Assembly: GCA_027036775.1 (NCBI GenBank)
Contig: JALWDS010000044.1
Span: 6,260-70,259, forward strand
From: Archaeoglobaceae archaeon
GTDB lineage: Archaea; Halobacteriota; Archaeoglobi; Archaeoglobales; Archaeoglobaceae
Reading direction: 5' to 3'
Length of the DNA: 64,000 nt
In this document: piece by piece, positions 508 to 15,792 of the stretch
Position numbering within the stretch: the stretch's first letter is position 1
Layout of the letters: each line of letters opens with the position of its first letter
Notes under the pieces: model-generated
Told to the model about the DNA's origin: nothing
The model's input: only the letters and a program-made list of their open reading frames with translations
Database searches by the model: none
Position numbers and translations under genes: made by a program

Positions 508-513
508 AACCCA

Positions 514-1287: not shown

Positions 1288-1482
1288 TTCAACCGTAAAT
1301 AATCAAAACTTAAAAAATTCACTATGGTGGTTTCGAAAAATTATCAATTAAAGTATAGCTTCTCTTTTAACTACATAGAATAATATAATATATAGAATAA
1401 TATTTAGTTATACATATTTATTTTTTATTAACTATCAATTATCTCTTTAGCCAAAGCATATCTATCCAATCTTTTAGCATCT

Positions 1483-1503
1483 GATTAACTACGATAGTTA
1501 ATC
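1483..1503. repeat. Island palindrome copy 1: GATTAACT-ACGAT-AGTTAATC
   Basis: Perfect 8-bp inverted arms with a 5-nt spacer, 38 nt upstream of the HTH gene start. Confidence 0.9.
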
Positions 1504-1519
1504 AAAAGGTTGAAATAGT

Positions 1520-1540
1520 GACTAACCGTAATGGTTAATC
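1520..1540. repeat. Island palindrome copy 2: GACTAACC-GTAAT-GGTTAATC
   Basis: 7/8 arm complementarity. Ends at the base before the ATG at 1541. With copy 1 it flanks an AT-rich TATA-like stretch (1509-1516). Confidence 0.9.
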
Positions 1541-1837
1541 ATGGCTTTGGTAAACTGGCTCAAGGTTTTGAGAGCTTTACAGATGGCTGAAGAAATCAAG
1601 AGAAATCTCGACTACTGTACTAATCTTATACAGAGAAACGCATGCAACTGTAAACACGGTGAACTCTGTCAAAGAGCCTTAGCAATTGCCACAGGTTTAT
1701 CAGATAATGCCATCAAGAACATGTTGCTTAGACTCGAATTGTATAGAGAAGAGTTAGGAGACTGGTTCCCGTTCGAGATCAGAAAAATTGATGCCGGGAT
1801 GAACCAACCGAGAAAGTTCATAAGGCTAAGATCCTGA
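1541..1837 (+). CDS. Small helix-turn-helix DNA-binding protein, function unknown
   Basis: 98 aa. Has an HTH-like segment (QRALAIATGLSDNAIKNMLLRLE) followed by a basic wing-like tail. The gene is bracketed by palindrome copies 1-3. Confidence 0.55.
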   Translation: MALVNWLKVLRALQMAEEIKRNLDYCTNLIQRNACNCKHGELCQRALAIATGLSDNAIKNMLLRLELYREELGDWFPFEIRKIDAGMNQPRKFIRLRS

Positions 1838-1856
1838 TTAACCACTGTGGTTAATC
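1836..1856. repeat. Island palindrome copy 3: GATTAACC-ACTGT-GGTTAATC
   Basis: Perfect arms, extendable to 10 bp (CTGATTAACC/GGTTAATCAG, 1834-1858). Overlaps the TGA stop codon of the HTH gene. Confidence 0.9.
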
Positions 1857-1955
1857 AGATGTATAATAATTAAATCAACTGTTGAGCTAAGCCAAAGATT
1901 ATAACAACGACACTACCAACCACAAAGCATAGTAATTATATCGAGGTGGGAGGTA

Positions 1956-2539
1956 ATGTACTTTGATCCGAGGCCGAAGAGAAAGAGGGAAGGTTTATAC
2001 GATAGAGATAAAGAGCTTGAAAAGTGTTGGAAATATTCGATTACTTCAAGAGTAAGGATTTTCTCGTAAAGGGATTCGAGCAAGTTGGATTGGACGTTGA
2101 AAAAGATGTTACAAATTATGCTTGCGAGAAGCTCGACGGAATCGTCGGCTGGCTCGTTCACTTCGGCTTGAAATGCTTGGAGAAGAAGACTTCTAAGGAC
2201 GTGGTTGAGGAAGTTTTAGGTGAAGCCAGCAAAATTTCGTTCGAAGAGCTCAACAAGTTTTTAGAAAAGCACAGACCAGCAGAAAAAAGAATTTTTGAGA
2301 TCGCAAAAGCCATCGCAACGGGCAAGAAAACTTGGAGTGAGATTAAGAGACACTTGGAATCGGTGGATCAAAGATCTATTCCCGACGCTTCCTTAAACAG
2401 AGCTATCAAAACTCTAATTAAAGCCTCCTTCGTGGAGAAAATCGTCGATGGTAGAAATGTTTACTATCAGCTTACCGATCCAGTTCTAAAAATTCAATTA
2501 ATCGTTACGGTTAATCAAACTTCAAAATTTATCGAATAG
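1956..2539 (+). pseudogene. Remnant of an archaeal AAA ATPase (PF01637-type ATPase plus C-terminal wHTH) with the P-loop domain deleted
   Basis: A strong SD (GAGGTGGGAGGT) precedes an ATG at 1956 that encodes MYFDPRPKRKREGLYDRDKELEK, the typical N-terminus of this family (compare FHNREKEI in the intact paralog at 62534). The frame changes near 2018-2026. It then continues as FDYFKSKDFLVKGFEQVGLDV...GIVGWLVHFG...KKTWSEIKRHL...YYQLTDPVL, the C-terminal third of the family. No Walker A motif is present. Confidence 0.6.
2496..2516. repeat. Island palindrome copy 4: AATTAATC-GTTAC-GGTTAATC
   Basis: Left arm matches the consensus at 6/8. Lies inside the last codons of the ATPase remnant. Confidence 0.7.
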
Positions 2540-2559
2540 AGAAAAACATCGAGAGAAAA

Positions 2560-3142
2560 GTGATAACAGCTCATCTAAAGCGGGTGAGAACCATGCTGAT
2601 CGGGATAGGGGGAGCGACGCTCTCGGGAAAGACAACTATAACTCTTAAACTCTGCGAAGAGCTATTGAAGAGAGGTTTTAGGGTAGGGATAGTCCTGGAA
2701 TTTGCGGAGACCGTAGCGAAAGAAATGGGATACAGTAAAATCGAAGAAGTCAGAAGAAATCCTAAAAAATACTCCCAATTCGAGCTTGAAATTCTTTTTA
2801 GGAAGGTAACGCTCGAAGAACGATTAAAAGAGCGATTTGACTTCGTGATAAGCGACACCACTCCAGCAGAAGTTATCCTTATACTCTAAACTCTACTTAC
2901 CTTACGAATTATTAGAAATCGTGGAAGGTATAACTAGGAAATACCTTAACAGATATGACGTGGTTTTCTTACTCGAACCTCTAAACGTTCAATCTAACAA
3001 CGGATTCAGATCAAAACAAGACATAGCGAGCAGAAAAAAGCACTATGCAATTCTAAAAAACATTTACCCCCAATACGTAGAAATTCCAACGGCACCGATA
3101 GACGAAAGACTGAAACTAATTCTAAACAAACTACTATCATAA
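2560..3142 (+). pseudogene. P-loop NTPase/kinase (AAA_28-like) split by one frameshift
   Basis: ORFs 2560-2889 and 2921-3142 are in different frames. The first carries Walker A (GGATLSGKTT). The second frame is open from about 2868 (SLYSKLYLPYELLEIVEGITRKYLNRYDVVFLLEP) and continues the same fold. A single frameshift near 2865-2875 would restore a protein of about 185 aa. Confidence 0.5.
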
Positions 3143-3144
3143 GT

Positions 3145-3165
3145 GAGTAACCACTACGGTTATTC
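3145..3165. repeat. Island palindrome copy 5: GAGTAACC-ACTAC-GGTTATTC
   Basis: Starts 2 nt after the stop at 3142. The 21 nt TAACCACTACGGTTATTCAAT (3148-3168) are identical to 11461-11481. Confidence 0.85.
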
Positions 3166-3249
3166 AATTGCGGGTAGATCGTAACGTTGTCATATTATGA
3201 CACCTCCCATAACGGTAATTGTCAAGTCCTGACATCTACTATCGCGAGT

Positions 3250-3270
3250 GATTAACCACAGCGGTAAATC
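3250..3270. repeat. Island palindrome copy 6: GATTAACC-ACAGC-GGTAAATC
   Basis: 7/8 right arm. The left flank GCGAGTG (3244-3250) is shared with copy 7. A further half-site GTTTAATC lies at 3288-3295. Confidence 0.8.
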
Positions 3271-3661
3271 AACCTCTGGTCCATAGCGTTTAATCAATCA
3301 AGGATGGTAATCTACTTCAAGTTTCCAGCCTTTTCTTTTTCAATTCGATGATTTCATCAAGCTTAAGTTTCCTAAGCTCTTTTTCAAGCTCTGGAGTTCT
3401 TAGCTCCTCAACTTTCAACCTAGGATCCAACACTTTCCTCTCAAGTTCTTTAATCCTTTCTCATTATCTCTCAAGAAAATACCTCTCAAAGCCTTTAGAG
3501 CGTTCCAGTAATCGTATTAACGTGGTAGAATTTGGTGATTTTTTTTCTTCTTTCTTTTATCTGAGTGTGTTTAAGTACTACTTTTTAGGTTTAGTACATA
3601 TGGTATCTATCTCACATAGTTGGATAATTACAGGTGTAAGCGTATGTGAAAGGGGTGAAAG

Positions 3662-3811
3662 TTAAGCTTTTCTAATGACAATTTCGCCATTTTTCTCGTA
3701 GTAAACTAAGAGATCACCCTCTTTTAGTCCGAGCTTTTCGACTACTGCTCTTATGATCGTTGTTTTGAAGCCTTTGCTAACTTTAGATGTTCCCAATAAC
3801 TTTTCACCCAT
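3662..3811 (-). CDS. AbrB/SpoVT-fold antitoxin-like protein (orphan, 49 aa)
   Basis: Below the ORF-track size cutoff. Manual translation: MGEKLLGTSKVSKGFKTTIIRAVVEKLGLKEGDLLVYYEKNGEIVIRKA, a looped-hinge-helix pattern like the VapB at 11892. No toxin gene follows, only a start-less coiled-coil remnant (about 3325-3470, minus). Confidence 0.55.
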   Translation of the reverse strand: MGEKLLGTSKVSKGFKTTIIRAVVEKLGLKEGDLLVYYEKNGEIVIRKA

Positions 3812-3891
3812 GAGTTACGATTGACCGAAAAGTACTTATAGTTACTGGTTCTAAAAGTTACTAAAGTACTAAAAGTTCGAGAGGTGGCAAA

Positions 3892-4201
3892 ATGTTTAGA
3901 ATCCCTCGAGTCCTCACGAGCATTGAAACAATGAGAGAAATCTGCGAGGAGTTGAAGTATGGTAGTAAAAGTGCTAGAGAGCTGGCTGAAAAATTAGACA
4001 AGTCGGAAAATACGGTAAAGCAGTATTTGAACTCTATGAAGAGGTTTAAACTCGTAAGGTTCAACTCTAAAAGAAGGATACTTCTACGCAATTGGCGGTA
4101 AGTCTGTAAAAGTACCACAATCTCTCTTAGACTGGCTTAAGAGTAACGCAGAAATAAAGGAGTGCAAATCAGAGCCAACTTATTACGGAACTTGTAGCTG
4201 A
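3892..4201 (+). pseudogene. Winged-HTH regulator, probably frameshifted
   Basis: The 69-aa ORF (3892-4101) has an HTH (SARELAEKLDKSENTVKQYLNSMKRFKLV). The +1 frame continues from about 4075 as EGYFYAIGGKSVKVPQSLLDWLKSNAEIKECKSEPTYYGTCS and stops at 4199-4201, which looks like the missing wing and C-terminus. Confidence 0.4.
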
Positions 4202-4226
4202 GAGTTTTAATTTTTTATTTTTTATT

Positions 4227-6038
4227 TTAATAGATAATTCTAAGAATAATTGTAAGCACAAAACCAATTAAACAAAGCCATAGCAAGTTGACGAATGGTA
4301 TATATCTCAACAATATCATTGTAGGTTTGTTTTTGAAACAGCTAATGTTCTTCTCAAGCACTTTAGAGTAGTTTAGAGAAAATTGCGTAGCTAAGTGCTT
4401 AGCAATCGTAGGAGAGTATTTGTTAACAACTTTTATGCTCCAAACTATTAAGTCGAGCTGTTCTAACTCGTTAGATGGTATGACGAGATAGTACTGACCT
4501 AACAAATCGTTAACGATTACGGGATCCGTGTATATAGCTTCACTTGGCCGTTTTAGGGCTTTAATAACGTATAAATAGGTCGTAAACTTCACTTTAAGCC
4601 CGTCACAAGTTGTATATGTTTCTTTAGCTATCACATTGGGTATCTTTAGCCCATGAACATTCAAGTACTCGATAGGCTTTTCGTAATAGCGATGTGATTG
4701 GCAGATTTTATATTCCCACGATTCGTAAAACGCAAAGGGCCATGCCACGAAAAACGAAACTATAATCAGTCCAACTAATACGTGCATGACTAGCAAAACG
4801 TTATCTTTGATTATTACCTTCCTTCCGGATAACAATTTGAGAATAGTGTATACAACTGGGGGTACGATACCTAAAATCAAAGCGCTCGTAAGATTTGGTG
4901 CGGATTCTCTCGTAATATCTACTAACCATCCGAAGATAAAAGAGACAGCTGTAATAAATAGGACGACAGTTATAGACTTCTTTGAAGATTTTACATTCTC
5001 ATTAGGCGTTACTACTAAAATTATAGTTAGTATGACGAATGTAACAACCATGTATGCTAAAGGAGATATGGTTCTCCCGAAACTGGCTGTAAAGATAATA
5101 GCTATTGCATAAAGTATCGCAAGCATTAGTAATAGTTTTCCTCCGAATTTTACCCCCCGCTCGTCGTATAACTTTAGTAATTCGAGAACTTTACTTCTGT
5201 AATTTCTATATATATAATACGCAAAAATAAGAACGATAATTATGAAAACATAACTGGCTGGACTGATTTTCAAAAGACCATACCAATGAAGAGTCGAGAC
5301 GCCTATTCTAGTGAAGCAAGCGGAGAACCCGACGAAAAAACCTAACAGAGACAACACAGACTTATCTCGCACATGCCAATAGGACGTAAAAACCAGCCAC
5401 GGTATCAAAAGTGAAACCTCGACGGGATCCCAACCCCAAAAACCGCCCCATCCTAATGTAAAATACGCCCAAACTGCACCCATTACATTGGCAAGAGATA
5501 AGAAAAGGTATGCTAATCTTAATATCCTTAAACCTATGTTGTATCTTTGAGTAGCTAACAAAGCTACATAAAGACAAAAAGCGTAGGATAAAAATGTAAA
5601 GAAAGGATGTAATATTGCGTAGATGTTTCTAAATGTATGATCTAAGGATAGTCCATCTCCTAATATAGTTCTATTTAGGTAGTACGCTCCTTCCAAAAAC
5701 GCTGATAAAACGAGTAGTACACAGGTGATAACAAATACTCTATTTGTTTTTTTAGTGAATAAAGCCAACAAAGCGTAAACTAGGTAGCACCAAACCAAAA
5801 AACCGCTTGAAGTGCTCCACGAAGCTACAAATTTTAACGATATAGGTAGTTCTTTAGAAGAAGTTAAGAAAACATTGAGCAACGTAAAATCGTTAATCAA
5901 AAACGATAACACATATAGCACGGCACTTACGATTGCTAAGATGTATCCCGCATACGCTAAACGATTTTCGAGCATTGATAATGATAACAGTAATACAGAA
6001 ACAATAGCAATCCAGCCAGTGTAGTGAATTTCGAGCAT
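4227..6038 (-). CDS. CcmF/NrfE-like heme-handling membrane protein (WWD domain)
   Basis: 603 aa, polytopic. Contains a canonical tryptophan-rich WWD motif (LGWGGFWGWDPVEVSLLIPW, residues 195-214) flanked by conserved His (AILHPFF, YWH). Also has an ASWSTSSGFLVW segment as in CcmF. Low-GC codon usage. Confidence 0.7.
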   Translation of the reverse strand: MLEIHYTGWIAIVSVLLLSLSMLENRLAYAGYILAIVSAVLYVLSFLINDFTLLNVFLTSSKELPISLKFVASWSTSSGFLVWCYLVYALLALFTKKTNRVFVITCVLLVLSAFLEGAYYLNRTILGDGLSLDHTFRNIYAILHPFFTFLSYAFCLYVALLATQRYNIGLRILRLAYLFLSLANVMGAVWAYFTLGWGGFWGWDPVEVSLLIPWLVFTSYWHVRDKSVLSLLGFFVGFSACFTRIGVSTLHWYGLLKISPASYVFIIIVLIFAYYIYRNYRSKVLELLKLYDERGVKFGGKLLLMLAILYAIAIIFTASFGRTISPLAYMVVTFVILTIILVVTPNENVKSSKKSITVVLFITAVSFIFGWLVDITRESAPNLTSALILGIVPPVVYTILKLLSGRKVIIKDNVLLVMHVLVGLIIVSFFVAWPFAFYESWEYKICQSHRYYEKPIEYLNVHGLKIPNVIAKETYTTCDGLKVKFTTYLYVIKALKRPSEAIYTDPVIVNDLLGQYYLVIPSNELEQLDLIVWSIKVVNKYSPTIAKHLATQFSLNYSKVLEKNISCFKNKPTMILLRYIPFVNLLWLCLIGFVLTIILRIIY

Positions 6039-6097
6039 GGGTAGGCTAAACGCGCGTAACTTTAAAAAGCTGGCGCTTTAAATTGTCATCATGGTAA

Positions 6098-6179
6098 TTA
6101 CGAATAAAAATTGACAATGTTTTCTAAACTCAATTTAAATAAATCTTTCCACCCCGAAAACCAAACGAGGTGAGAAAAA
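6098..6179 (+). promoter_or_regulatory. Repeated promoter/5' module, copy A
   Basis: A 32-nt box TTACGAATAAAAATTGACAATGTTTTCTAAAC (6098-6129), a TATA-like TTTAAATAAA (6134-6143), and CCACCCCGAAAACCAAACGAGGTGAGAA (6149-6176), then ATG. Matches 9985-10060 and 10381-10431. Confidence 0.7.
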
Positions 6180-6668
6180 ATGAACGAAATGCGGATAAGA
6201 ATCCTAAGTAAATATAAAGGAGCACTATTTGTAATTTTGGTATTAACATACGCGTTAATTATGCTTATCCTAACAAAAAATTATCAATGCGTTGAGGGTA
6301 GAGCTGAAATTCTCGAACATTGTGTTAACTCGGGAAAAATACCTAAAGAAGTCTACGAATACGCTCTACTATTCCAACAAAAACACCCTAAAGCAGAATT
6401 TAAATTTTGTGAAAAGGGGAGATCGTGTATAATCTACATAATTCAAAAAAACAAAGAGGATCCATTACTATACACTCGATTCAATAAATCGAAAAATACA
6501 ATAATTATATTTTATGATAATAAATACACTAACAACTACATCATTTTAAATGCAAGCAAACCTAACGCAGTTCTAGTAACTATGAAAACAAATAACGGTT
6601 TTAAAACTTATAGCTTAAATGTAAGTTCCTCTGACCTAGATATTATTCTAAGTAGAATTAAAAAATAA
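6180..6668 (+). CDS. Membrane-anchored protein, unknown function (paralogous domain with 7054-8238)
   Basis: 162 aa with an N-terminal TM (GALFVILVLTYALIMLILT). The segment IPKEVYEYALLFQQKHPKAEFKFCEKGRS...IIIFYDNKYTNNYIILN aligns with LPECVLNFAKFYSELHPDVTFELVKEGDR...VVFFYEPYKARDYITIT in the neighbouring gene. Confidence 0.6.
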   Translation: MNEMRIRILSKYKGALFVILVLTYALIMLILTKNYQCVEGRAEILEHCVNSGKIPKEVYEYALLFQQKHPKAEFKFCEKGRSCIIYIIQKNKEDPLLYTRFNKSKNTIIIFYDNKYTNNYIILNASKPNAVLVTMKTNNGFKTYSLNVSSSDLDIILSRIKK

Positions 6669-7053
6669 TTAATAATTATTTTTAATAAATTAGATTTTTA
6701 ATTTTGTTTAATGTTTTTTGATCATTCATTATATCTAATATGGTATAAACGAGATAACAACATAATATTCCATTATAAGTTTTGAAAAATGATTATCGCT
6801 GTATCCCGTTTATATCTCCATAATAAATCACATAGTCATTTTGTTGTCGATAGTAACTTTCAGCAACTTGTTCTGCCAACCTAAATAAAGCGCAACTACT
6901 CCATGTGCCCACCTACCATAAAGCATTCGAGTTCTATGTAGATGACTACCACGGAATAGGTACTCCAATAGCTACGTGCAATCTACCATAATCTCTATTT
7001 ATTTATAATTTTTTAATTTTATATTTTTAAATTATAATAAAAATATATAATAG

Positions 7054-8238
7054 TTAACGGACGGTGTAGAATACAGCTTTTGAATTGCTTGGCATTGGGA
7101 TTGAGTGCCAATCTGGATCGGGAACTACGTCAAATAATGCATATTTAACAGTTTTTCCGTCTAATTTGATGATGACCCCTGGAATCTCCATGAAAATACT
7201 TTTAAGATTATCTACAGTGAAGGCCCTCTCATTTAAAGCTACTAAATAGGGATTCATAGCAACGAGTCCTCTTAGATTTGGAAACACGTCTTGGATAGGT
7301 GTATATTCAAACATTTTAGCATCAAATCCTAAATTCTTTAATACGAGAACTTCCGCCAATGCGTAGAGTTCATAGTACTTACGATAAGACAATGGACCTT
7401 CCTCTCCACCGCTAAGCAGTAATCCTTCTAGAATCCCCCCAACATTTACTTTGATCTTCTCTACCTTGGATCCTTTAAAAGCAAATGTAGTCAATTCGTA
7501 AGTTTTAAACCAATTTTCGTTTTCGCTAATCCACCAACCGTTATTAGTTAACACAGTTCTAAAGAATTCATGAAGGATTAAAAACTCCCCCTCTTTTCCC
7601 AATCCGTAATCCTTAGCAATTTTCCTAACTTGCTCTGCAATTTCTTTCGAGATTTTCTTATCTTCAGAGTTTAAAGTTACCGTCGCCCACTTAACTTCAT
7701 AAGACGATTTACTGGCTTTTACAGATACTACCCTTTGTGGACGCAAGATCACTGATACATTTTCAAGAAGAATTGGTCTCGTCTGTAAGAACAGAGCCTG
7801 AGGTTTTTCCACCCTCTTTGGCAAATCTACAGTTATTGTAATGTAATCTCTCGCTTTGTAAGGTTCGTAGAAGAACACAACTGTCTCTAAAACATCTCCC
7901 TTATCCTTAATGTAAACACCTCTCCAAACTTCCCAAAAATTATTCCCTTCGTAAGCGTAGAGTTTAGTTCTATCCCCTTCTTTAACGAGTTCAAAAGTCA
8001 CATCTGGGTGCAGTTCCGAGTAAAATTTTGCAAAATTTAGAACGCATTCTGGTAAATTTTTACTATACGTTTCTATATCTTCTAAGGAACCTTTTGCAAT
8101 AACCACTTTTGTTGCTGAACATGATAGCAAACTGAAATCATAAATAAAGAGTGCTAACAACAGTATTCCCCCTACTATGTAGAACGACCATAACTTTTTA
8201 TCTCCCGTTACATTTCCTTTCTTCTTTTTCATAATCAA
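7054..8238 (-). CDS. Membrane-anchored extracytoplasmic protein, unknown function
   Basis: 394 aa with an N-terminal TM (LWSFYIVGGILLLALFIY). Its N-domain is paralogous to the 6180-6668 product. Low-GC. Confidence 0.6.
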   Translation of the reverse strand: MIMKKKKGNVTGDKKLWSFYIVGGILLLALFIYDFSLLSCSATKVVIAKGSLEDIETYSKNLPECVLNFAKFYSELHPDVTFELVKEGDRTKLYAYEGNNFWEVWRGVYIKDKGDVLETVVFFYEPYKARDYITITVDLPKRVEKPQALFLQTRPILLENVSVILRPQRVVSVKASKSSYEVKWATVTLNSEDKKISKEIAEQVRKIAKDYGLGKEGEFLILHEFFRTVLTNNGWWISENENWFKTYELTTFAFKGSKVEKIKVNVGGILEGLLLSGGEEGPLSYRKYYELYALAEVLVLKNLGFDAKMFEYTPIQDVFPNLRGLVAMNPYLVALNERAFTVDNLKSIFMEIPGVIIKLDGKTVKYALFDVVPDPDWHSIPMPSNSKAVFYTVR

Positions 8239-8336
8239 AGATTACTATTAAACTATTAATAAAGTTTACTATTGATCTATATAGAAACATAACTATATTA
8301 TATATGCGTAGAGTTATAAACAATCTTTTTTAGTTC

Positions 8337-8590
8337 GACAACACCAAAATGGATTAGAGAAGATCTCACTGACCTCCTCCCCGCCCTAAAGGGCGAGAGT
8401 TCCCCACAGGGGAATCGGCTCACATCCGTCTCACGACTGCATTGCTTTCGGTTGGTGTCATTGGGCCGGGTCAGAGCGACCCTCTAAGGAGGTGTTAAGA
8501 TGGGGGAGAATAAAAACATTTCGGAAAGAGCGGGCTTTCCTTCCCGCCTTGAAAGGCGAGTCTTCCAGCCCGCAAACTCGGTGATGAGAA
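8337..8590 (+). ncRNA. GC-rich structured RNA candidate, family unknown (strand tentative)
   Basis: A GC-rich segment of about 250 nt sits inside an ORF-free, very AT-rich spacer. Hairpins: 8382-8395 (CGCCC/GGGCG), 8400-8414 (UUCCCC-ACA-GGGGAA), 8468-8482 (GGGUC/GACCC), and a nested helix 8530-8573 (GCGGGC/GCCCGC around CGCC-UUGAAA-GGCG). A possible closing helix pairs 8341-8347 with 8453-8459. There is an internal duplication (8375-8403 versus 8538-8566, 23/29). A TATA-like TTATAAA lies at 8314-8320. Confidence 0.4.
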
Positions 8591-8639
8591 AAAACACTAA
8601 AGAAGCTAAGCATATACTGAGCTTAATTCTTATGGGTAT

Positions 8640-9170
8640 TTATCTTCTTACAGTATCGATATAGGAGTTAATATTGTAGCGACCGGTGTAATAGACATAT
8701 AAGTAGTTTGGTTTGCCTACGTATTTTCCGGAAAATGGATTGAGGTATTTGTCTCTGTAGGATTTGCAATCGAAATTCTTAACAGTAACTATCATTGAAG
8801 GTGTGGCGAATCTTGGATAAGCTGGAGTTTCTACTGAAAATTTGTCATCTAATATTTTAGCGCAGTCCATGTACTCTTTTCTTAGTGGTAGATCCACCTC
8901 ATTGCCTCTGGCTATAATCTTGCAGAATGTTACATTTACATATTTCGTAAGATTTCTGGCAATCTTAAGTGCTTCTTTATCTGCGGGGGTGTTTGCATAG
9001 AAGAAATATACATGGATTGTTTGGTTTGGATAGAGTCTATCTCTGAGTTTAGGTGTTAAGGTTTGAGTTGGAAAATTGGTAATTATTTTTGTAGTTGTGC
9101 AAGGAGTTACAGTAAAATGTGGAATTGTTTTCTCGGTGTGGTTTATAGTAGGTGTTATTATCTTCTTCAA
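8640..9170 (-). CDS. Hypothetical protein, thioredoxin-fold-like without CxxC (paralog of 9245-9937)
   Basis: 176 aa with a TTG start and no ATG near the 5' end. LYPNQTIHVYFFYAN and PSMIVTVKNFDCKSYRDKY align with LNPNNVKMIIYADSR and PSIILIMKNGSYKTYSGLDSYKDY of the divergent neighbour. Confidence 0.45.
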   Translation of the reverse strand: MKKIITPTINHTEKTIPHFTVTPCTTTKIITNFPTQTLTPKLRDRLYPNQTIHVYFFYANTPADKEALKIARNLTKYVNVTFCKIIARGNEVDLPLRKEYMDCAKILDDKFSVETPAYPRFATPSMIVTVKNFDCKSYRDKYLNPFSGKYVGKPNYLYVYYTGRYNINSYIDTVRR

Positions 9171-9244
9171 CGATTATTGGTTTTCTGCACGTGAAATAGT
9201 AGATCCTATTCTACTGGGGAACAAATGAAAAATATACGGTACCA

Positions 9245-9937
9245 ATGTCAATAGACTGGCTATACGCTCAGATTACCGGCAAATTCCCCAAACCACCAGC
9301 TTACGCTAATAGAACATACCACGTTTACAACGAGGAATCGGAGAACATTACCGCTTTAGTCCTTGGCCCCAACTACATTCCAGAACCTATAACACCTCTC
9401 AACCCTAACAACGTTAAGATGATTATCTACGCGGATTCGAGAGGGATAAACGATGAATTCTTCATACCCTTGATGGACAACTACACGAAGAAAATAAGAG
9501 AAATAATACCAAATGCAAAATTCATCAAGATAGTAGACTGGAGCGCTTATTACCACCGCAAATACATAATCACTGATCCACCCGGATATGAGAACTATTG
9601 GGACAAGTATGTTATACCATGCACTAAATTTTACGATTATAGATCAAACAAATGGCTCCTAGACTTTCCAAGCATAATTCTAATTATGAAAAACGGTTCC
9701 TACAAGACCTACTCTGGATTGGATTCCTATAAAGATTACTTTGAAGTTGTAAGGAGTACTGGATACAGAGACAACCTAATAGCACACCCACCAATTGACA
9801 AGTTATTCTTAGATATTAAAGCATACTACGAAAAAAAGAAAGATACTGCCAAAGTCGAAATGATCAATAAAGTAATCAAAGAACTAAAAGAAATTAAAGA
9901 AATAATCAAAGAAAACTACGATAAACAACATCCATAA
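9245..9937 (+). CDS. Hypothetical protein, thioredoxin-fold-like without CxxC, with a Lys/Glu-rich C-terminal helix
   Basis: 230 aa. Divergently transcribed from its paralog across a 74-bp spacer. Confidence 0.5.
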   Translation: MSIDWLYAQITGKFPKPPAYANRTYHVYNEESENITALVLGPNYIPEPITPLNPNNVKMIIYADSRGINDEFFIPLMDNYTKKIREIIPNAKFIKIVDWSAYYHRKYIITDPPGYENYWDKYVIPCTKFYDYRSNKWLLDFPSIILIMKNGSYKTYSGLDSYKDYFEVVRSTGYRDNLIAHPPIDKLFLDIKAYYEKKKDTAKVEMINKVIKELKEIKEIIKENYDKQHP

Positions 9938-9984
9938 TTTTTTATAACTTTCAATATTTTACTTTTTTAATTAATTTAACTTTT

Positions 9985-10060
9985 TTACGAATAAAAATTA
10001 ACAATGTTTTCTAAACATTTTAAAATTTTTTTCACCCCGAAAACCAAGCGGAGGTGAGAA
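9985..10060 (+). promoter_or_regulatory. Repeated promoter/5' module, copy B
   Basis: The 32-nt box (9985-10016) is 31/32 identical to copy A. It is followed by TATA-like TTTTAAAAT and TTCACCCCGAAAACCAAGCGGAGGTGAGAA. The GTG inside GGTGAG (10054) is the start of the downstream ORF. Confidence 0.7.
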
Positions 10061-10353
10061 TTACGAGACTGCACGGTTTCGACGTCGAGGACGAGAAGTG
10101 CGACGGTTGCGGATGGAGAGTTAGCAAGCTTTACGTCCTCGAAGATTCGAAAGAGAATGCGAAAAAAATGCTGAACGAGATAGGATTGTGCGCTCATTGT
10201 ATCTGCGACCTCCTCGAAGAGAACGACTACCTCATAGTGCGAGACCTCGTAAAGCTCGAATGTCCGGAGTGCAAAAGAAGATTCCTTATCGAGACGAATT
10301 ACGAAGGAAACGTAACGTGTCCGTACTGCGGAGAGCTCGTCGAGTCCAATTAA
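10054..10353 (+). CDS. Double zinc-ribbon protein, unknown function
   Basis: 99 aa with a GTG start. Four Cys pairs: CDGC, CAHC, CPEC, CPYC. Confidence 0.55.
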   Translation: MRITRLHGFDVEDEKCDGCGWRVSKLYVLEDSKENAKKMLNEIGLCAHCICDLLEENDYLIVRDLVKLECPECKRRFLIETNYEGNVTCPYCGELVESN

Positions 10354-10380
10354 CTTATCACGATTTTTTATTTTACAATT

Positions 10381-10431
10381 TTTATTTATAGTTTTTTTCC
10401 ACCCCAAACCCGAGCGGAGGTGAGAAAAGAA
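10381..10431 (+). promoter_or_regulatory. Repeated promoter/5' module, copy C (lacks the 32-nt box)
   Basis: TATA-like TTTATTTATA (10381-10390) and CCACCCCAAACCCGAGCGGAGGTGAGAA (10399-10426). The following ORF starts MNEMWLRIS, compared with MNEMRIRIL after copy A. Confidence 0.6.
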
Positions 10432-11190
10432 ATGAACGAGATGTGGTTGAGAATCTCGGAAAGAGATTGGCAGAAGTACACGGGAGAAGTTAAGAGCGTC
10501 GAAGCGGGAGTGGAACTAACCCCGGAGTTCGTTAAAAAGGTGAACGAGATTTCGAACGGAAACGTGTTCTTCGTGGAAACGAGGGACGGGATTAAGATTA
10601 CCTACGCTTGCGGTCGCGGAAGTTACTACAAAGCGGAGGAGAAACTCAGAAAGTTAATAGAAAAATTCGTAATAGAACGGATAGCTAAGAACAACTACGA
10701 AAGAATCGGAGAGAACATGATTAAGATAAAAGAACCGATCACAACGGAGAACGTCGATCTAACTGAATTCAGCGAACTGATTAAGAAAATCGAAGAGGAA
10801 ATCAAGAGAGAGGAAGAAATTAAAAGGAAGATAAAAGAACTCAGAAAGAGGTTAGAGGAAAAACTTTCCCAGAAGATCGATAACTACGAGATTCGCAGTA
10901 ACGGGATCGACGTCACGATAAAGGGTGTAACGATCTATGTTCCGTTCAAGGACTTGGAAGAAGCTATCAAAGAGGTCGAAAACCTCGAAGAAAAGATAAT
11001 TGAGAAGCTAAAGAAAGAAATCGAATACCTCAAGAAGGAACGTGCGGAGATCGAAAGAAAGTACGAAAAGTTGTGCGAATTCGTAAGGAACAAGGGCTTA
11101 ACTAAAGATTTTCTCGAATTCTTAAAGGAAGAAAGGGAGAAAGAGGTCGAAGAGGACGTAATGGACGAGTTCGAGGAAATCTTCTACTAA
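10432..11190 (+). CDS. Coiled-coil protein, unknown function
   Basis: Start refined to the ATG at 10432 (the track uses the GTG at 10420). A globular N-domain of about 100 aa is followed by long Glu/Lys heptad-like repeats. Confidence 0.6.
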   Translation: MNEMWLRISERDWQKYTGEVKSVEAGVELTPEFVKKVNEISNGNVFFVETRDGIKITYACGRGSYYKAEEKLRKLIEKFVIERIAKNNYERIGENMIKIKEPITTENVDLTEFSELIKKIEEEIKREEEIKRKIKELRKRLEEKLSQKIDNYEIRSNGIDVTIKGVTIYVPFKDLEEAIKEVENLEEKIIEKLKKEIEYLKKERAEIERKYEKLCEFVRNKGLTKDFLEFLKEEREKEVEEDVMDEFEEIFY

Positions 11191-11207
11191 TTTTTTACGG
11201 AGCGAGT

Positions 11208-11228
11208 GATTAACCGTGGCGGTTAATC
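11208..11228. repeat. Island palindrome copy 7: GATTAACC-GTGGC-GGTTAATC
   Basis: Perfect arms, 17 nt after the stop at 11190. Confidence 0.9.
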
Positions 11229-11357
11229 AAACTGATAATAATAAGATACAAGTATAAATTTTACAGATTTACGAGGAGAAATTAACAGAACGAGGAGTTA
11301 ACGATTATTCAAGGAGTTTTTGATCTTTTAACCCCTTTTTAGTGGTTTTCGCAGAGT

Positions 11358-11378
11358 TATTAACTATAGCGGTTAGTC
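11358..11378. repeat. Island palindrome copy 8 (degenerate): TATTAACT-ATAGC-GGTTAGTC
   Basis: 5/8 arm complementarity but the same spacing and the same TTAAC/GGTTA cores. Confidence 0.55.
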
Positions 11379-11402
11379 AGAAGTTCGACGATTTCAAAAC
11401 TT

Positions 11403-11424
11403 TCGAGTGGTGTTCACCACTCGA
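11403..11424. repeat. 22-bp perfect palindrome TCGAGTGGTG-TT-CACCACTCGA flanked by a 12-nt direct repeat
   Basis: 10-bp arms. The direct repeat TCGACGATTTCA occurs at 11385-11396 and 11421-11432. Confidence 0.85.
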
Positions 11425-11457
11425 CGATTTCACGATTGTCGATTTGGAGTCGAAACT

Positions 11458-11478
11458 GGTTAACCACTACGGTTATTC
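11458..11478. repeat. Island palindrome copy 9: GGTTAACC-ACTAC-GGTTATTC
   Basis: 24 nt beyond the vapC stop codon. Confidence 0.85.
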
Positions 11479-11502
11479 AATGTAGTGTGGCTTAGGTGCT
11501 CT

Positions 11503-11895
11503 TCACCTTATCCAGAGTATGTCGGGATAAACACCCTCAAATTCTCTATCACCCGTGACTATAATTCCTTTTTTATCGATAGCTGTTGCGACGACGAAGG
11601 CATCCGCATAAGATAGACTATGCATAGCTTTAATCCTCCCGGCAGTTAAAGCTAAGCTCTCATTAACTTCTACGAACTCAATCGGCAACCTTTTTACAAT
11701 TGCTACGGCTTCATTAGCCTTTGCCATTCCAAATTCTCTTGCAACTATATAATAGACCTCTCCGAGATTAACGTAGTTCATGAACAGCTTTATTTCACCT
11801 TTCTCGGCCTTATCGATGATTTCTTCAACTTTATCTGCTCCTTCTTCGTTACCGAGATACGCAAGAATGGCAAAGCTATCTAAAACGTAATTCAT
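11503..11895 (-). CDS. vapC: PIN-domain toxin VapC
   Basis: 130 aa. Has the PIN acidic residues (N-terminal D in MNYVLDSFAIL, internal E, C-terminal D in YADAF and TGD). Overlaps vapB by 4 nt. Confidence 0.85.
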   Translation of the reverse strand: MNYVLDSFAILAYLGNEEGADKVEEIIDKAEKGEIKLFMNYVNLGEVYYIVAREFGMAKANEAVAIVKRLPIEFVEVNESLALTAGRIKAMHSLSYADAFVVATAIDKKGIIVTGDREFEGVYPDILWIR

Positions 11896-12122
11896 CTTTT
11901 CATCTCCCTCTCTTTCTCCTCCTTCTTATATTCGCTAATTATCTCATCTAACTTTCTCTTAAACTTTAGAAATCCTCTCCCTTTAGTCTTAGGAATAGGA
12001 ACGATAACTATTTCACCCCCAAAATCTAAAATCTCCACTTCGTTCCCAGCTTCAATCCCATACTTCCTCCTCAATTCAGCTGGCAGAACTATCTGTCCCT
12101 TAGTTGAAATTTTAACTGGCAT
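11892..12122 (-). CDS. vapB: AbrB/SpoVT-family antitoxin VapB
   Basis: 76 aa. MPVKISTKGQIVLPAELRRKYGIEAGNEVEI is a typical looped-hinge-helix N-terminus. Confidence 0.85.
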   Translation of the reverse strand: MPVKISTKGQIVLPAELRRKYGIEAGNEVEILDFGGEIVIVPIPKTKGRGFLKFKRKLDEIISEYKKEEKEREMKR

Positions 12123-12166
12123 ACCATCACCGTATAACGTTTTACCAATTTAGATATATGTTTTAC

Positions 12167-12182
12167 TTTACGGTTATTCAAG
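12167..12182. repeat. Island palindrome, right half only (TTTACGGTTATTCAAG)
   Basis: Matches the right half plus flank of copies 5 and 9. Lies 45-60 nt upstream of the vapB ATG. Confidence 0.5.
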
Positions 12183-12268
12183 GTAGAAAGAGCTATTCCG
12201 AGGGTTGATTAAGGGGTTGATGTCTGTTCTATTGAGAGTTTGGGGGGTTTAAAGCAGTTTCTGAAAAG

Positions 12269-13408
12269 CTATAGCGAGCTATAACATTTATATGCGTGTT
12301 TGATACCTTTTAAAGCGATAACGTAAGCGGAGGCGGTATGTTTATCCACACCTAACTTTTTCATCAGCTTTTCACCGATCTTACTCGTATTAGCTGGATT
12401 GACGTAAGAAGTTTTCAAACCGTATAAAGGTGCTTTCAATCTAGTCATTTCAATCACTCTGCTTCTAAAGGTTTGAACGGAGTAGTTGTAGTTTTTGCTA
12501 AATCTTCTACCGTTTTTAATCCAGAATAGCTTTAGCTTACCTAAAGCAGACAAATCTTCCAAGTATATTCTGTTTACTCCGTGATGGTAAGCGTACTTTA
12601 GCATTTCATGGATTTTCACACCTATCAAAGACCAAACTCTTCTTCTATGCATATTTCTCGATTTAACTTCTTTAAACCAAAACGTCTTATAATCTCTTAA
12701 TTCTCCGTTTTGATTGACAATTGCAAGGTTTATCCTATCTAAGTTTACGTCAACTCCAGCTACGTTTTTACCTTTCGGTTGATCGTGCCTTCTCATAATT
12801 TCCAAATAAAAGTCGTAGTCCACTGTAACTTGAACTTCACCATGTGTAAACAGAACTCCTTTGCGGTTACCAAATTGCTTCAATACAATCCTTGCATAAT
12901 AAGGTTGCATGTAGAACCATAAGTTTCCAAGTATTGGTTCATATCTCTTTGGAATTGTCGGTTCAACGATTACGTAGGATTTATTACCTTCAAAATCGAA
13001 TGTTAGAATTCTGAAGGATCCGTCTCCTTGGATCTTGATGTTCTGATTCATCTTTTTACTTTCCCCTTCACACTGAAACAATAACCAATTATTCCAGCTT
13101 ACGTCTTCTAATTTAACTTCGTCGAATCCAAATTCTTTGTACAATCGGTTCAACTCGTTGACAGACTCGATAACTCCGTAAACTAAATCTATCGCACCGT
13201 CAACGTATCTCCTGTTCGGTAGAATTTCGTAACCGACCTTTCGATACCTCTTATACATCGAAAATTGAGATAATGGTGGTTTACCATCTTTCAAAAACTC
13301 GTTAAAGACTTTCAGCGCTACCACTCTAAAAAGCTTAGCTGTTGAAATCAGTTTTCTCGCTATATCTCCAGATGCGTTGAACGGTAAGGTTAGGGTTATA
13401 TGTTCCAT
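12269..13408 (-). CDS. TnpB-like (IS605 OrfB-type) RuvC nuclease lacking the zinc-ribbon domain
   Basis: About 379 aa from the ATG at 13408 (the track uses the TTG at 13426). RuvC-I is VAGVDVNLDRINLAIV, RuvC-II is RIYLEDLS, RuvC-III is VNPANTSKIGEKLMKKLGVDKHTASAYVIA. No CxxC...CxxC is present between the TSK and DKH segments, where TnpB normally has its zinc finger. TATA TTTATAAA (13431-13438) lies at -30 to -23 of the ATG, suggesting a leaderless mRNA. Confidence 0.65.
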   Translation of the reverse strand: MEHITLTLPFNASGDIARKLISTAKLFRVVALKVFNEFLKDGKPPLSQFSMYKRYRKVGYEILPNRRYVDGAIDLVYGVIESVNELNRLYKEFGFDEVKLEDVSWNNWLLFQCEGESKKMNQNIKIQGDGSFRILTFDFEGNKSYVIVEPTIPKRYEPILGNLWFYMQPYYARIVLKQFGNRKGVLFTHGEVQVTVDYDFYLEIMRRHDQPKGKNVAGVDVNLDRINLAIVNQNGELRDYKTFWFKEVKSRNMHRRRVWSLIGVKIHEMLKYAYHHGVNRIYLEDLSALGKLKLFWIKNGRRFSKNYNYSVQTFRSRVIEMTRLKAPLYGLKTSYVNPANTSKIGEKLMKKLGVDKHTASAYVIALKGIKHAYKCYSSL

Positions 13409-13462
13409 ATTTGGATATTCCACCAAAACGTTTATAAATCTATCGGTTGTTAGTATTAACGT

Positions 13463-13506
13463 GCCCCGACCGTTCCGAGACCCGTAGGAGAACTGCGGTG
13501 AGGGGC
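13463..13506 (+). other. GC-rich hairpin (GCCCC..ACCG / CGGU..GGGGC)
   Basis: Pairings: 13463-13467 with 13502-13506, 13469-13472 with 13496-13499, and an apical 13473-13476 with 13487-13490. Starts about 23 nt downstream (plus strand) of the palindromic TATA at 13431-13438. Confidence 0.5.
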
Positions 13507-13527
13507 GTCGGGTGTCCGTGATGACTG

Positions 13528-13572
13528 TCTCCGCTACAGAAAGTTATAGATTAATACAATATGTAGCGGAGA
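13528..13572. repeat. Perfect 11-bp inverted repeat TCTCCGCTACA / TGTAGCGGAGA with a 23-nt AT-rich loop
   Basis: Arms at 13528-13538 and 13562-13572. It straddles the stop codon of the truncated thioredoxin ORF. Confidence 0.85.
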
Positions 13573-13747
13573 TCCAGAACGGTATGGCTACAACACCGAA
13601 ACTCCTTGCAAGTTCTCTGTTTTCCAAGACGTTTACTTTGATCAGTTCGACATCTCTAAAACCTTTCAGGACCTCTTCGAGGATATTTTCAACGTCTCTG
13701 CACGACTTGCACCTTGGCGAGTAGAACTCCACCACGACCTTTTTCAT
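13544..13747 (-). CDS. Small thioredoxin/glutaredoxin-like protein, C-terminally truncated or replaced
   Basis: Start refined to MKKVVVEFYSPRCKSC (ATG 13745-13747), because the track's N-terminal extension overlaps the tRNA. A CKSC redox motif and SFGVVAIP are present. The usual segment of about 20-25 aa after the cis-Pro is replaced by 11 unrelated residues (FWISATYCINL) encoded by the inverted repeat. Confidence 0.6.
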   Translation of the reverse strand: MKKVVVEFYSPRCKSCRDVENILEEVLKGFRDVELIKVNVLENRELARSFGVVAIPFWISATYCINL

Positions 13748-13818
13748 GTCGTTCGTTAGGTTCCACCATATAAAACTCAACCGAAAACGATATATTTTCT
13801 CCGAATTACTAATAATGA

Positions 13819-13891
13819 GCGGTCGTAGTCTAGCCTGGCAGGACACGGGCCTCCCGAGCCCGTCGCCCGGGTTCAAATCCCGGCGGCCGCA
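13819..13891 (+). tRNA. tRNA-Gly: tRNA-Gly (anticodon CCC)
   Basis: Manual cloverleaf. Acceptor GCGGUCG/CGGCCGC (one G-U pair), anticodon stem CGGGC/GCCCG with loop CUCCCGA, T arm CCGGG-UUCAAAU-CCCGG, discriminator A. No encoded CCA. Confidence 0.9.
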
Positions 13892-13953
13892 TATCGAGAG
13901 TTCTTCTTATTACCACCAAAACAGATATCAAGTCGTGAGTTTAATAGAGGTAA

Positions 13954-15792
13954 GTGGTAACCTTCGGCGTTGACGTCGTTGGGAACAACAGGTATGCGTT
14001 GTTCGTGCTGGAGAGCGAAGAGGGGAAGGTGGTATCTCAGGTAAAACTCTTCAGACTTATCAGGAGGTGTAGACCGGAAATAATAGCGGTAGATAACGTT
14101 TTCGAGCTTTTCAAGTCTAAAGAAGAGCTCGTAACGTTTCTTAGAAACGCACCACCGAATACAAAGCTGATTCAAGTTGCTGGAGAACACTCCCTGCCAG
14201 CCCTATCTAAGAGGTTCGGTCTCTCTATAAACCCGAAGAATCCCATGGACGAGGCAAGGGCCTGTGCTTACCTCGCAAAGCTTGGAGTCGGTTACGAGGT
14301 TTCTGTTTTCATGGACAGAACTACGATAACCGTTTCAAGGAACAGAAGTCTGGGGAGGGGAGGTTGGAGGCAAAAGAAGTATAAGAGAAAGATTCACAAC
14401 TCCGTAAGGCAGGTTTTCAACGAGATAAAGAGAAAACTCGACGATCTCGGCTTTGAATACGTTGAAAAGGTTAGAAAGGGATTTGGGGGAATTTCGAAGG
14501 GTGTTTTACTCGTCAACGCTCCGAAGTTTAAAATCCCCATAAACTCCTTCAGATTCGGGGACGTTCAGGTCAAAGTTGAGGCGGTAGAGAAGGACAGGAT
14601 AGAGTTCATACCCCTGAGAAAATCCAAACCCTTCGTCATAGTAGGTATAGACCCGGGAACGACAACTGCGGTAGCTTTGCTCGACTTAAACGGTAACGTG
14701 CTCGACGTGAGGAGTAAGAAGGGTTGGGGATTTGGAGATGTCGTTGACTACATAACTTCTATAGGCAAGCCCGTCGTCGTTGCAACGGACAAGTCCAACC
14801 CACCCGAATTCGTCCTAAAACTTAAGGCCTCTTTCAACGCGGTTTTGTGGTGTCCGAAGGAGGATATGAGCGTCGAGAAGAAGAGGAACTTGACGTCCAA
14901 CTACAACTACCTCAACGATCACGAGAGAGATGCCATTGCGGTAGCCATCTCTGCCTACAACTCCTACAAGAACAAGATAAAGAACGTAGAGAAGAGGGTT
15001 CCCGCCGGAATAGATGTCGACTTCGTCAAGGCGGAGGTTATAAAGGGTAACTCCCTCAAGGAGATTCTTAAGGTCGAGAGGGAAGAGAGGAAGGAGAGGG
15101 TTGAGAAGAAAAAGCAGGAAACACACTCGACAAACTTGAAGGTCTTGGAGGAACTGAGAAGGGAGAATGAGATGCTTAGAAGAAAGGTCAAGGAGCTAAG
15201 CGAAGAGGTTGAGAGGTTGAGGGGCAAGATAGTCGAGATGTCCAAGGAGAGCTACGACAGGATTAGGAGGGACAACTTGGTGAGATCTCTCAGAAGCGAG
15301 ATTTCAGAGCTTAGAAGAGCTTTGAAGGAGAGGGAGGAGAGGATAAGGGAACTCGAAAGGGAGGTTGAAACTCTGAAGAAGATGAGGGTGCTCGAACTTA
15401 AGGGATGGAAGGGAGTTAAGGTGTTGAAGAAGTTCACGAGAGACGAAATAGAGGAGCTTGAAAGGGAGTTCGGAATAGAGAGGGGAGACGTTATACTCAT
15501 CCTCGATGCGAGTTGCGGTGGAAAGAGCGGTGCGGAATACCTATGCAAGAAGGAGGTAAAGGCGGTTATAGTTAAGAACGAGATGTCCCACTTGGCAAAA
15601 TCCGTTTTCGAGGAGAGAGAGATTCCGGTCATCGATTTCAAAGACGTCGAGGTCATGGAAAGCTATCCCATATCTTTGATCAACTACGAGAGCTTCGAAA
15701 GGGCTTACAAATTGGCTAAGGAGAACTTGAGGATGAGCAAGATAGATAGAATAGAGAGGCTACTGATAGAATACAAACGTAGAAACCTTTAA
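13954..15792 (+). CDS. DUF460/COG2433-type protein (RNase H-like fold nuclease domain plus long coiled coil)
   Basis: 612 aa with a GTG start. FVIVGIDPGTTTAVALLDLNGN is a RuvC/RNase H-like first motif. Central Glu/Arg/Lys coiled coil, then a C-terminal globular domain. Confidence 0.65.
   Translation: MVTFGVDVVGNNRYALFVLESEEGKVVSQVKLFRLIRRCRPEIIAVDNVFELFKSKEELVTFLRNAPPNTKLIQVAGEHSLPALSKRFGLSINPKNPMDEARACAYLAKLGVGYEVSVFMDRTTITVSRNRSLGRGGWRQKKYKRKIHNSVRQVFNEIKRKLDDLGFEYVEKVRKGFGGISKGVLLVNAPKFKIPINSFRFGDVQVKVEAVEKDRIEFIPLRKSKPFVIVGIDPGTTTAVALLDLNGNVLDVRSKKGWGFGDVVDYITSIGKPVVVATDKSNPPEFVLKLKASFNAVLWCPKEDMSVEKKRNLTSNYNYLNDHERDAIAVAISAYNSYKNKIKNVEKRVPAGIDVDFVKAEVIKGNSLKEILKVEREERKERVEKKKQETHSTNLKVLEELRRENEMLRRKVKELSEEVERLRGKIVEMSKESYDRIRRDNLVRSLRSEISELRRALKEREERIRELEREVETLKKMRVLELKGWKGVKVLKKFTRDEIEELEREFGIERGDVILILDASCGGKSGAEYLCKKEVKAVIVKNEMSHLAKSVFEEREIPVIDFKDVEVMESYPISLINYESFERAYKLAKENLRMSKIDRIERLLIEYKRRNL

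Follow-up and report, generated by a model that had tools for sequence, protein, structure and literature searches.

The stretch of DNA analysed here (the window) comprises 64,000 nucleotides of contig JALWDS010000044.1 from an Archaeoglobaceae archaeon, and it carries at positions 12248-13582 a 1335-bp element resembling an insertion sequence (IS), in which the gene for a TnpB-like protein is accompanied by what we predict to be a divergently transcribed, structured RNA. From one end to the other, the element consists of a short terminal segment, the open reading frame (ORF), a divergent promoter region and the RNA gene. The ORF, located on the minus strand at 12269-13408 and encoding 379 residues counted from its ATG, is real, is the only ORF of the element and is present as one copy in the window. 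Its G+C content is 37%, against ~47% for the Archaeoglobus-like genome, and that of the whole element is 38%, against 46.6% for the host flank. A previous reading of the letters alone (the sequence-only reading) had recognized a TnpB-like nuclease by the motifs GVDVNLDR, YLEDLS and NPANTSK...GVDKHTASAYVIA; all three are present in the ORF, the first containing D220 and the second E284.

The ends of the element were located by comparing copies at different loci, which share homology between exactly these two points. In Caldivirga sp. MU80, which contains at least 8 copies, nucleotide homology extends from ~190 nucleotides upstream of the start codon to ~45 nucleotides past the stop codon, and copies of the Archaeoglobus group at different loci are bounded likewise. 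The upstream boundary is sharp family-wide: each copy starts with CCGTTC on the gene sense strand, and the flanks beyond are unrelated. The other end lies 11-30 nucleotides past the stop codon and reads ...(T/A)(T/A)C(T/A)GCCC(C), or ...GAAACTGnnnnRAAC(C) in the Archaeoglobus group. In the window this end, opposite the RNA, is the terminal segment that follows the stop codon at 12248-12268 (minus strand, ...CAGAAACTGCTTTAAA), and it is abutted by a run of C at 12242-12247. On the RNA strand the latter is a G-run, a candidate for the target-adjacent motif; nearly all copies have a G-run at this junction. Scanning metagenomes with the 20-mer at this other element end gave six chance matches, all of them unrelated.

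At its RNA side the element interrupts a thioredoxin gene. The annotated thioredoxin of 67 residues (13544-13747, minus strand) is a truncation product, in which the 5' part of the gene, 55 codons at 13583-13747 on the minus strand, has been cut by the insertion and the last 12 residues (PFWISATYCINL) are encoded by the element. An intact thioredoxin of 88 residues with an identical N-terminus exists in a 99.7%-identical strain, where the site is empty, and the empty-site contigs match the window from 19747 down to 13581 and stop at 13581/13582. Read on the window plus strand, with a slash at the insertion point, the empty allele is ...CAACGATAACGGG/TATGGCTACAAC..., its junction being ...AACGGG/TATGGCTAC, and the filled allele is ...CCAGAACGG/TATGGCTACAAC.... 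Comparison of the two alleles places the element end at 13582, with a 2-nucleotide ambiguity in G, and the insertion 3' of GGG. Both alleles occur in samples from the same site (JOHN19-1).

Two derivatives of the element lack the ORF. One, a mini-element of 226 bp (L031:7447-7672), contains ~60 nucleotides of the ORF end, the TATA region and the RNA, and has no nearby gene copy; the other, of ~297 bp (L070:~3419-3715), has the same make-up and sits within another copy of the nuclease gene. Both thus retain ~60 nucleotides of the end opposite the RNA. Intact relatives of the interrupted gene give the target of the L070 insertion as ...GCT AGG GGN CAT..., with ...GCTAGGGGG/CATCC as the empty junction, and the filled site reads ...GCTAGGGGG/CAGAAAC...GATGAACGG/CATCC, which corresponds to insertion 3' of the G-run without duplication. 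The two exactly defined insertions (AACGGG/TATGG in thioredoxin and GCTAGGGGG/CATCC in L070) are therefore both located 3' of GGG and lack a target-site duplication, with a 1-2-nucleotide G ambiguity in each. A third pair of loci, L002 (empty) and L006 (filled), fixed the RNA-side junction. The sequence-only reading had proposed comparing flanks and copies to define the ends of an element, and with multi-copy relatives and a known empty site in hand, the window copy is a bounded mobile element and not an isolated degenerate gene. The same reading had noted that no tnpA accompanies the gene, which extends to the family: neither in the window nor at 48 related loci was a TnpA, serine recombinase or integrase found close to the gene, trans-acting copies elsewhere in the genomes lying outside this search. 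Across the same 48 loci, no neighbour gene recurs within 3.5 kb.

To the sequence-only reading, an RNA partner was not evident. The hairpins upstream of the gene, which that reading had listed only among its checks, appear, however, to belong to a family-wide, covarying RNA that is antisense to the gene and ends at the element boundary. A conserved block of 160-215 nucleotides is located upstream of all 45 full-length members with usable flanks. Within the window copy of this block we predict a structured non-coding RNA scaffold of ~125 nucleotides at 13460-13582 (plus strand, antisense to the gene), based on a covariance-model match and covariation, with its 5' end placed by the spacing from a TATA box. 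The predicted structure contains four helices, all on the plus strand. P1 (~13464-13473 with ~13503-13513) encloses P2, a hairpin of variable length (13482-13487 with 13494-13499), and P3 (13517-13520 with 13579-13582, CCGU/ACGG) encloses the variable hairpin P4 (~13527-13539 with ~13561-13573) and closes at the extreme 3' end of the block. Conservation extends to the unpaired stretches CGAGA, GGUGAGGGG and GAGACCGUGAUGAA. In all copies, it falls sharply after GAACGG, where the element ends.

Covariation across the family supports this structure. RNAalifold predicted 22 pairs, 19 of them with compensatory changes. The covariance model gave one match in the window (13439-13594, plus strand, 84 bits) and 66 matches in related loci, including 18 gene copies outside the model-building set; each match adjoins a gene copy in antisense orientation, with the exception of two solo copies and two weak matches. 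In the alignment of the 66 matches, 94.4% of cells are paired compared with 71% after shuffling (P2 is paired in 97-98%, counted per each of two alignment registers). The covariation score is 0.60 compared with 0.19 for shuffled alignments, a value of 0.60 being reached in 0 of 500 shuffles, and it is at most 0.10 when the pairing partners are slid by 1-3 columns. Evidence on the strand comes from wobble pairs: one pair is U.G in 60 of 66 sequences, and ~200 wobble cells would become A.C mismatches on the gene sense strand. Single-sequence folding is better on the antisense strand in 43 of the 45 members, by a mean of 11 kcal/mol. The window copy folds at -63 kcal/mol on the antisense strand versus -52 kcal/mol on the sense strand, and the consensus folding energies are -24.6 and -5.4 kcal/mol, respectively. 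A search of positions 11900-14100 against Rfam at a permissive threshold returned tRNA-Gly alone, with no family matching the RNA.

The gene and the predicted RNA appear to share a promoter region. The TATA box TTTATAAA at 13431-13438 occupies positions -23 to -30 from the ATG, where the sequence-only reading had put it, and is retained in the ORF-less mini-elements. It is ~26 nucleotides from the ATG on the minus strand and ~26 nucleotides from the predicted RNA 5' end at ~13460 on the plus strand; its spacing from the ATG suggests that the TnpB-like mRNA is leaderless. A second A/T-rich box is located at ~13450-13459. Between the TATA box and the start codon is a small conserved palindrome, TGGATATTCCA (13412-13422), whose counterpart in most Thermoprotei members is GGGGATTCCCC; it may serve as an operator or form a hairpin at the 5' end. 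At the opposite end of the scaffold, transcription would read through into flanking thioredoxin DNA, the first part of which, TATGGCTACAACACCGAAAC at 13583-13602 on the plus strand (a length that we assumed), is a putative guide segment. In the empty thioredoxin allele this putative guide sequence follows GGG. A run of T at ~13621-13624 could terminate the RNA.

The canonical location for a TnpB-associated RNA gave a different result. Past the stop codon nothing is conserved beyond ~21-27 nucleotides, which bears out the view of the sequence-only reading that no downstream omega RNA is apparent, and identity at synonymous codons over the last 100 codons (0.46-0.48, versus 0.456 gene-wide) does not rise toward the 3' end. 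Judged by these patterns of conservation, there is no sense omega RNA overlapping the 3' end of the ORF.

To place the protein, homology searches were performed and returned 398 proteins of 360-380 residues, including APE_1276 of Aeropyrum pernix and members from Thermoprotei, Njordarchaeia and Archaeoglobus; the hosts of the family are hyperthermophilic archaea. The window protein and nearly all of its homologs have a precomputed match to Pfam PF27229 (SSO2105_N). The family is small, because an exhaustive profile search of 1.84 billion representatives gave just 318 clusters. The sequence-only reading had called the protein a compact, atypical member of the RNA-guided nuclease superfamily, and its assignment to the TnpB/Cas12 superfamily is supported at the fold level (WED, REC and split RuvC) by structural matches of a predicted model and by relatives annotated as TnpB-related. 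An AlphaFold2 model (predicted local distance difference test score, 87.5; predicted template modelling score, 0.81) was compared with the PDB using Foldseek. It matched AsCas12f, Un1Cas12f, Cas12k, Cas12m and ISFba1 TnpB over its full length with E values from 3e-10 to 1e-4 and template modelling scores of 0.4-0.6 over ~400-500 columns, the top match being AsCas12f (8j12_A, E 3e-10). A tblastn search of plasmids recovered bacterial proteins labelled 'TnpB-related' from Thermus oshimai (L085) and Peptoclostridium (L086), at 24-29% identity to the query.

The comparison with hidden Markov models (HMMs) and structures that the sequence-only reading had suggested was positive for one half only: structures recovered Cas12f, Cas12k and TnpB, but the curated HMMs (Pfam, including Cas12f1-like_TNB, and NCBIfam guided_TnpB and TIGR01766) were all sub-threshold. 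Their best scores, in bits, were 13.8 (cut-off, 26.3), 18.1 (cut-off, 100) and 20.3 (cut-off, 32), and the sub-threshold TnpB and Cas12f matches cover residues 267-344. Searches of PDB sequences with the protein and with the family profile gave no match, nor did searches of PHROGs and a phage collection, and no canonical TnpB motif of the zinc-finger type is present anywhere in the window. The two bacterial proteins, of 516-524 residues, are the nearest annotated relatives and are likewise without a zinc finger. That of Peptoclostridium has His at the RuvC-III position and adjoins an IS607 transposase; that of T. oshimai retains Asp there.

The lack of a zinc ribbon after the TS motif, pointed out in the sequence-only reading, is a property of the whole family. 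The segment from the TS motif to the C-terminal helix consists of ~12 residues with zero cysteines, no member has a cysteine between the TS motif and RuvC-III, and the ~30-residue CxxC...CxxC segment is missing; the C4 zinc finger (TNB domain) of the interval between RuvC-II and RuvC-III is thus absent. The same reading had also proposed an intact D-E-D triad, and here our alignments disagree. D220 is nearly invariant and E284 invariant in the family alignment, H357 is invariant in the close family, and D355, two residues upstream of H357, is conserved as well. Most of the family has H in the H357 column; of the distant members, P0136, P0247 and the Thermus protein have D there and one has N.

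The register with canonical proteins was obtained by profile-profile alignment with hhalign against an alignment of canonical, ISDra2-type TnpBs; hhalign against the single ISDra2 sequence was uninformative. The alignment pairs D220 with D191, E284 with E278 and D355-K-H357 with D359-R-D361, and it is in register from RuvC-I to RuvC-III, though with an E value of 0.06. The column of the canonical catalytic Asp (DRDxN/NADxN motif) holds H357, and D355 pairs with the non-catalytic first Asp of DRDxN. By way of the Peptoclostridium relative, E284 also maps to the MEDL motif of Cas12f. The ISDra2 sequence used as the reference is 96% identical to a database protein and has D, E and D at residues 191, 278 and 361, in agreement with the published sites. 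Because H357 occupies the position of the catalytic Asp, the RuvC site is, on this alignment, D220-E284-H357, and the RuvC-III catalytic Asp is absent. This combination is familiar: a 2023 census of TnpB and Cas12 proteins described a major clade, RIIIr-4, with a RuvC-III D-to-H change and no C4 zinc finger, so neither the loss of the finger nor the substitution is new (PMC10691335). The family described here has both features, a likeness by clade description and not by phylogeny. The census argues that conserved active-site rearrangements of this type stay active (PMC10691335). We found no description of the PF27229 family in the literature on APE_1276, SSO2105 and RIIIr-4.

Together, these observations lead us to favor, with a probability of roughly 0.6, the interpretation that the conserved upstream RNA is a guide RNA of the OMEGA type (for obligate mobile element-guided activity), encoded divergently from its nuclease gene, with the read-through flank as its guide, so that the window copy would be aimed at the intact thioredoxin allele (GGG followed by TATGGCTACAAC). 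The element would be a non-autonomous, IS200/IS605-like one with two divergently transcribed genes, one for the nuclease and one for the RNA. The RNA would start ~26 nucleotides from the central TATA box and run outward, its scaffold ending at the transposon end (GAACGG) and transcription proceeding into the flanking DNA, which, by analogy with OMEGA systems, would serve as a 3' guide. The complex of protein and RNA would then recognize and cut element-free alleles at GGG followed by the guide-matching sequence, here GGG/TATGGCTACAAC, and the element would be restored or spread when the cut is repaired by recombination. The model predicts that the RNA is transcribed and bound by the protein, that the flank acts as its guide, that GGG is the adjacent motif and that DNA is cleaved. 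When read on the RNA strand, the locus follows the order of an OMEGA element, from target motif and left end through cargo and structured RNA to the right end and the flank that would provide the guide.

Several points weigh against this interpretation. The strand asymmetry of the upstream block equally fits strand-specific hairpins of single-stranded DNA, in which G.T is tolerated, and the transcription start, 3' end and guide length of the RNA are all predictions. The case for GGG comes from two exact sites and a conserved G-run that could belong to the element itself, and in the comparison of L002 with L006 there is no GGG on the empty side, that flank being too diverged for alignment. For the protein, the profile-profile alignment to canonical TnpB is statistically weak when taken alone (E 0.06), and the exchange of the catalytic Asp for His might make cleavage weaker or different. 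No transposase that would move the element was found in cis. In addition, the other flank in the window is at least 12.2 kb of strain-specific DNA and not the remaining thioredoxin gene, so the window copy did not arise from a simple insertion alone.

The first of these points is also the basis of a competing explanation, in which the upstream block acts mainly as DNA, namely as a promoter and a subterminal hairpin end for a trans-acting HUH (TnpA-type) transposase, and the protein uses another RNA or none. Strand-specific hairpins do occur at IS200/IS605 ends, the insertions 3' of a short motif without duplication and the retention of both ends in mini-elements also speak for it, and the tolerance of DNA hairpins for G.T is compatible with the strand bias. 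We nonetheless consider it unlikely, given that a ~125-nucleotide four-helix junction with conserved unpaired stretches far exceeds the known hairpin needs of TnpA, that the other end is merely ~20-60 nucleotides long and has no comparable structure, that the correctly spaced TATA box is conserved and kept in mini-elements, and that TnpA was found in none of the loci examined. Canonical elements, moreover, combine both roles, so a function as a DNA end is compatible with an RNA. A cis-acting regulator of the nuclease gene, working by divergent-promoter interference or as an antisense small RNA or antitoxin-like RNA and not as a guide, would account for the promoter region common to the RNA and the gene and for the conserved palindrome at the gene start, and antisense RNAs are known beside archaeal transposase genes. 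However, the predicted RNA has no overlap with the leaderless mRNA, its conserved structure stops exactly at the element boundary, which regulation would not need, and RNA-only mini-elements with no gene to regulate still persist and transpose; we regard this possibility as very improbable. Two known arrangements of guide-like RNAs were also set aside. An IS110-type bridge RNA, with its variable target- and donor-binding loops, is at odds with the sequence-conserved internal loops of the RNA, in which only the 3' flank is variable, and no IS110 recombinase (DEDD plus serine) is among the structural matches listed; an IscB-type upstream omega RNA is at odds with the antisense orientation, with a conserved end that is the 3' end and with fold matches to Cas12f and TnpB.

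Other alternatives concern the protein. It could be a nuclease-impaired, RNA-guided DNA binder, that is, a regulator or targeting factor similar to TldR or Cas12k, if the His that replaces the RuvC-III catalytic Asp abolishes cleavage; its fold matches include Cas12k and Cas12m, neither of which cleaves double-stranded DNA. Yet the family is mobile and multi-copy and is not fixed beside a target gene, D220 and E284 are strictly retained, and the third position varies only between H and D, apart from one N, suggesting that a metal or acid-base site still functions there; the 2023 census likewise argued that conserved rearrangements remain active (PMC10691335). We therefore view such a role as quite unlikely. 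A more speculative extension of the OMEGA-type interpretation, to which we give only a slim chance, is that the protein and its divergent RNA are a self-sufficient unit, in which the D-E-H RuvC enzyme without a zinc finger, programmed by an RNA that extends across the element end, performs the strand transfers of transposition as well as homing cleavage, making it an RNA-guided transposase that dispenses with TnpA. This would explain why all 48 of 48 loci lack a transposase despite the insertion of full-length elements and mini-elements at new GGG sites.

The known systems closest to the proposed nuclease and guide RNA include TnpB/OMEGA of IS200/IS605 and IS607 elements, such as ISDra2 TnpB. 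Shared features include the WED, REC and split RuvC fold with the RuvC-I Asp and RuvC-II Glu in register, a single-ORF, multi-copy element whose insertion 3' of a short motif leaves the target unduplicated, a structured RNA scaffold that stops at the transposon end with read-through into the flank, and standalone RNA-only derivatives. Unlike canonical TnpB, the family lacks the C4 zinc finger, has His at RuvC-III and is below the curated TnpB HMM thresholds; its predicted RNA gene is upstream and antisense with its own promoter, whereas in canonical elements a sense RNA overlaps the ORF at its 3' end; and no TnpA or serine recombinase is found in cis. IscB and IsrB OMEGA systems resemble it in having the guide RNA gene at the transposon end, 5' of the nuclease gene, but their RNA is sense with a 5' guide, where that predicted here is antisense with a 3' flank, and no IscB or Cas9 is among the structural matches listed, which are headed by Cas12f and TnpB. 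Cas12f (type V-F) is the best structural match and of similar miniature size, although its zinc finger, D-E-D site, CRISPR array and trans-activating CRISPR RNA are all absent here. According to the main text of the 2023 census, the TnpB omega RNA lies downstream, and only downstream regions were aligned for RNAs (PMC10691335). An archaeal branch linked to MazE/RHH in that census has a small upstream gene and a long 3' untranslated region, and the family described here has neither (PMC10691335). Our literature search found no account of an RNA of the PF27229 family or of a divergent, upstream or antisense guide RNA for a TnpB-type protein.

The DNA on the far side of the element (window 1-12241) is a strain-specific region that starts directly after the element, has a G+C content of 37% versus 46.6% and is absent from the contig of the sister strain. 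Conversely, the downstream genes of that contig (a 310-residue ORF, GATase, L7Ae, S28e, L24e, NDK and IF-2) are nowhere in the window. The region encodes Cas6 (514-1287), an MCM_C winged-helix protein (2024-2539), a cytochrome-c-assembly-like membrane protein (4227-6038), a small P-loop protein and a VapBC pair, comprising a PIN toxin (11503-11895) and a likely AbrB-type antitoxin assigned by eye (11892-12122). The region extends past the end of the window, and no integrase was seen in the part of it within the window. A metagenome contig with the filled allele and an identical gene (L001) ends at window position 12239, 3 nucleotides past the C-run, which suggests that the assembly branches there and that the population holds several continuations. 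On the other side, 237 bp separate the element end from a tRNA-Gly(CCC) gene at 13819-13891 on the plus strand, which is overlapped by a spurious long ORF; it is the thioredoxin gene, and not this tRNA gene, that received the insertion. We considered whether the 12-kb low-G+C region might be an integrative element that uses tRNA-Gly and rejected this, as the host thioredoxin fragment separates the tRNA gene from the region and no integrase was found. Near one Archaeoglobus copy of the element, L002:7915-9810 encodes a 631-residue NAD synthetase homolog with a seemingly intein-like insertion, as judged by eye.

The protein is of a type that matches a clade catalogued in 2023; the new result is the RNA partner, most likely the conserved structured RNA encoded upstream on the opposite strand. 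The locus provides a natural test of its proposed role: thioredoxin alleles with and without the element coexist in samples from one site, and the sequence beside GGG in the empty one is matched by the predicted guide. The hyperthermophile origin and very small size of these proteins also make them candidate compact, thermostable editors. If the upstream antisense RNA is indeed the guide, this family would represent a TnpB-class system with a different gene layout, in which the RNA has its own promoter and is located on the opposite strand and at the opposite end from canonical omega RNA, and surveys that align just the regions downstream of tnpB would miss such an RNA. An enzyme of 360-380 residues without a zinc finger, and with His in its RuvC site, would then still be RNA-programmable, which would bear on the evolution of active sites and RNA partnerships among TnpB and Cas12 proteins.

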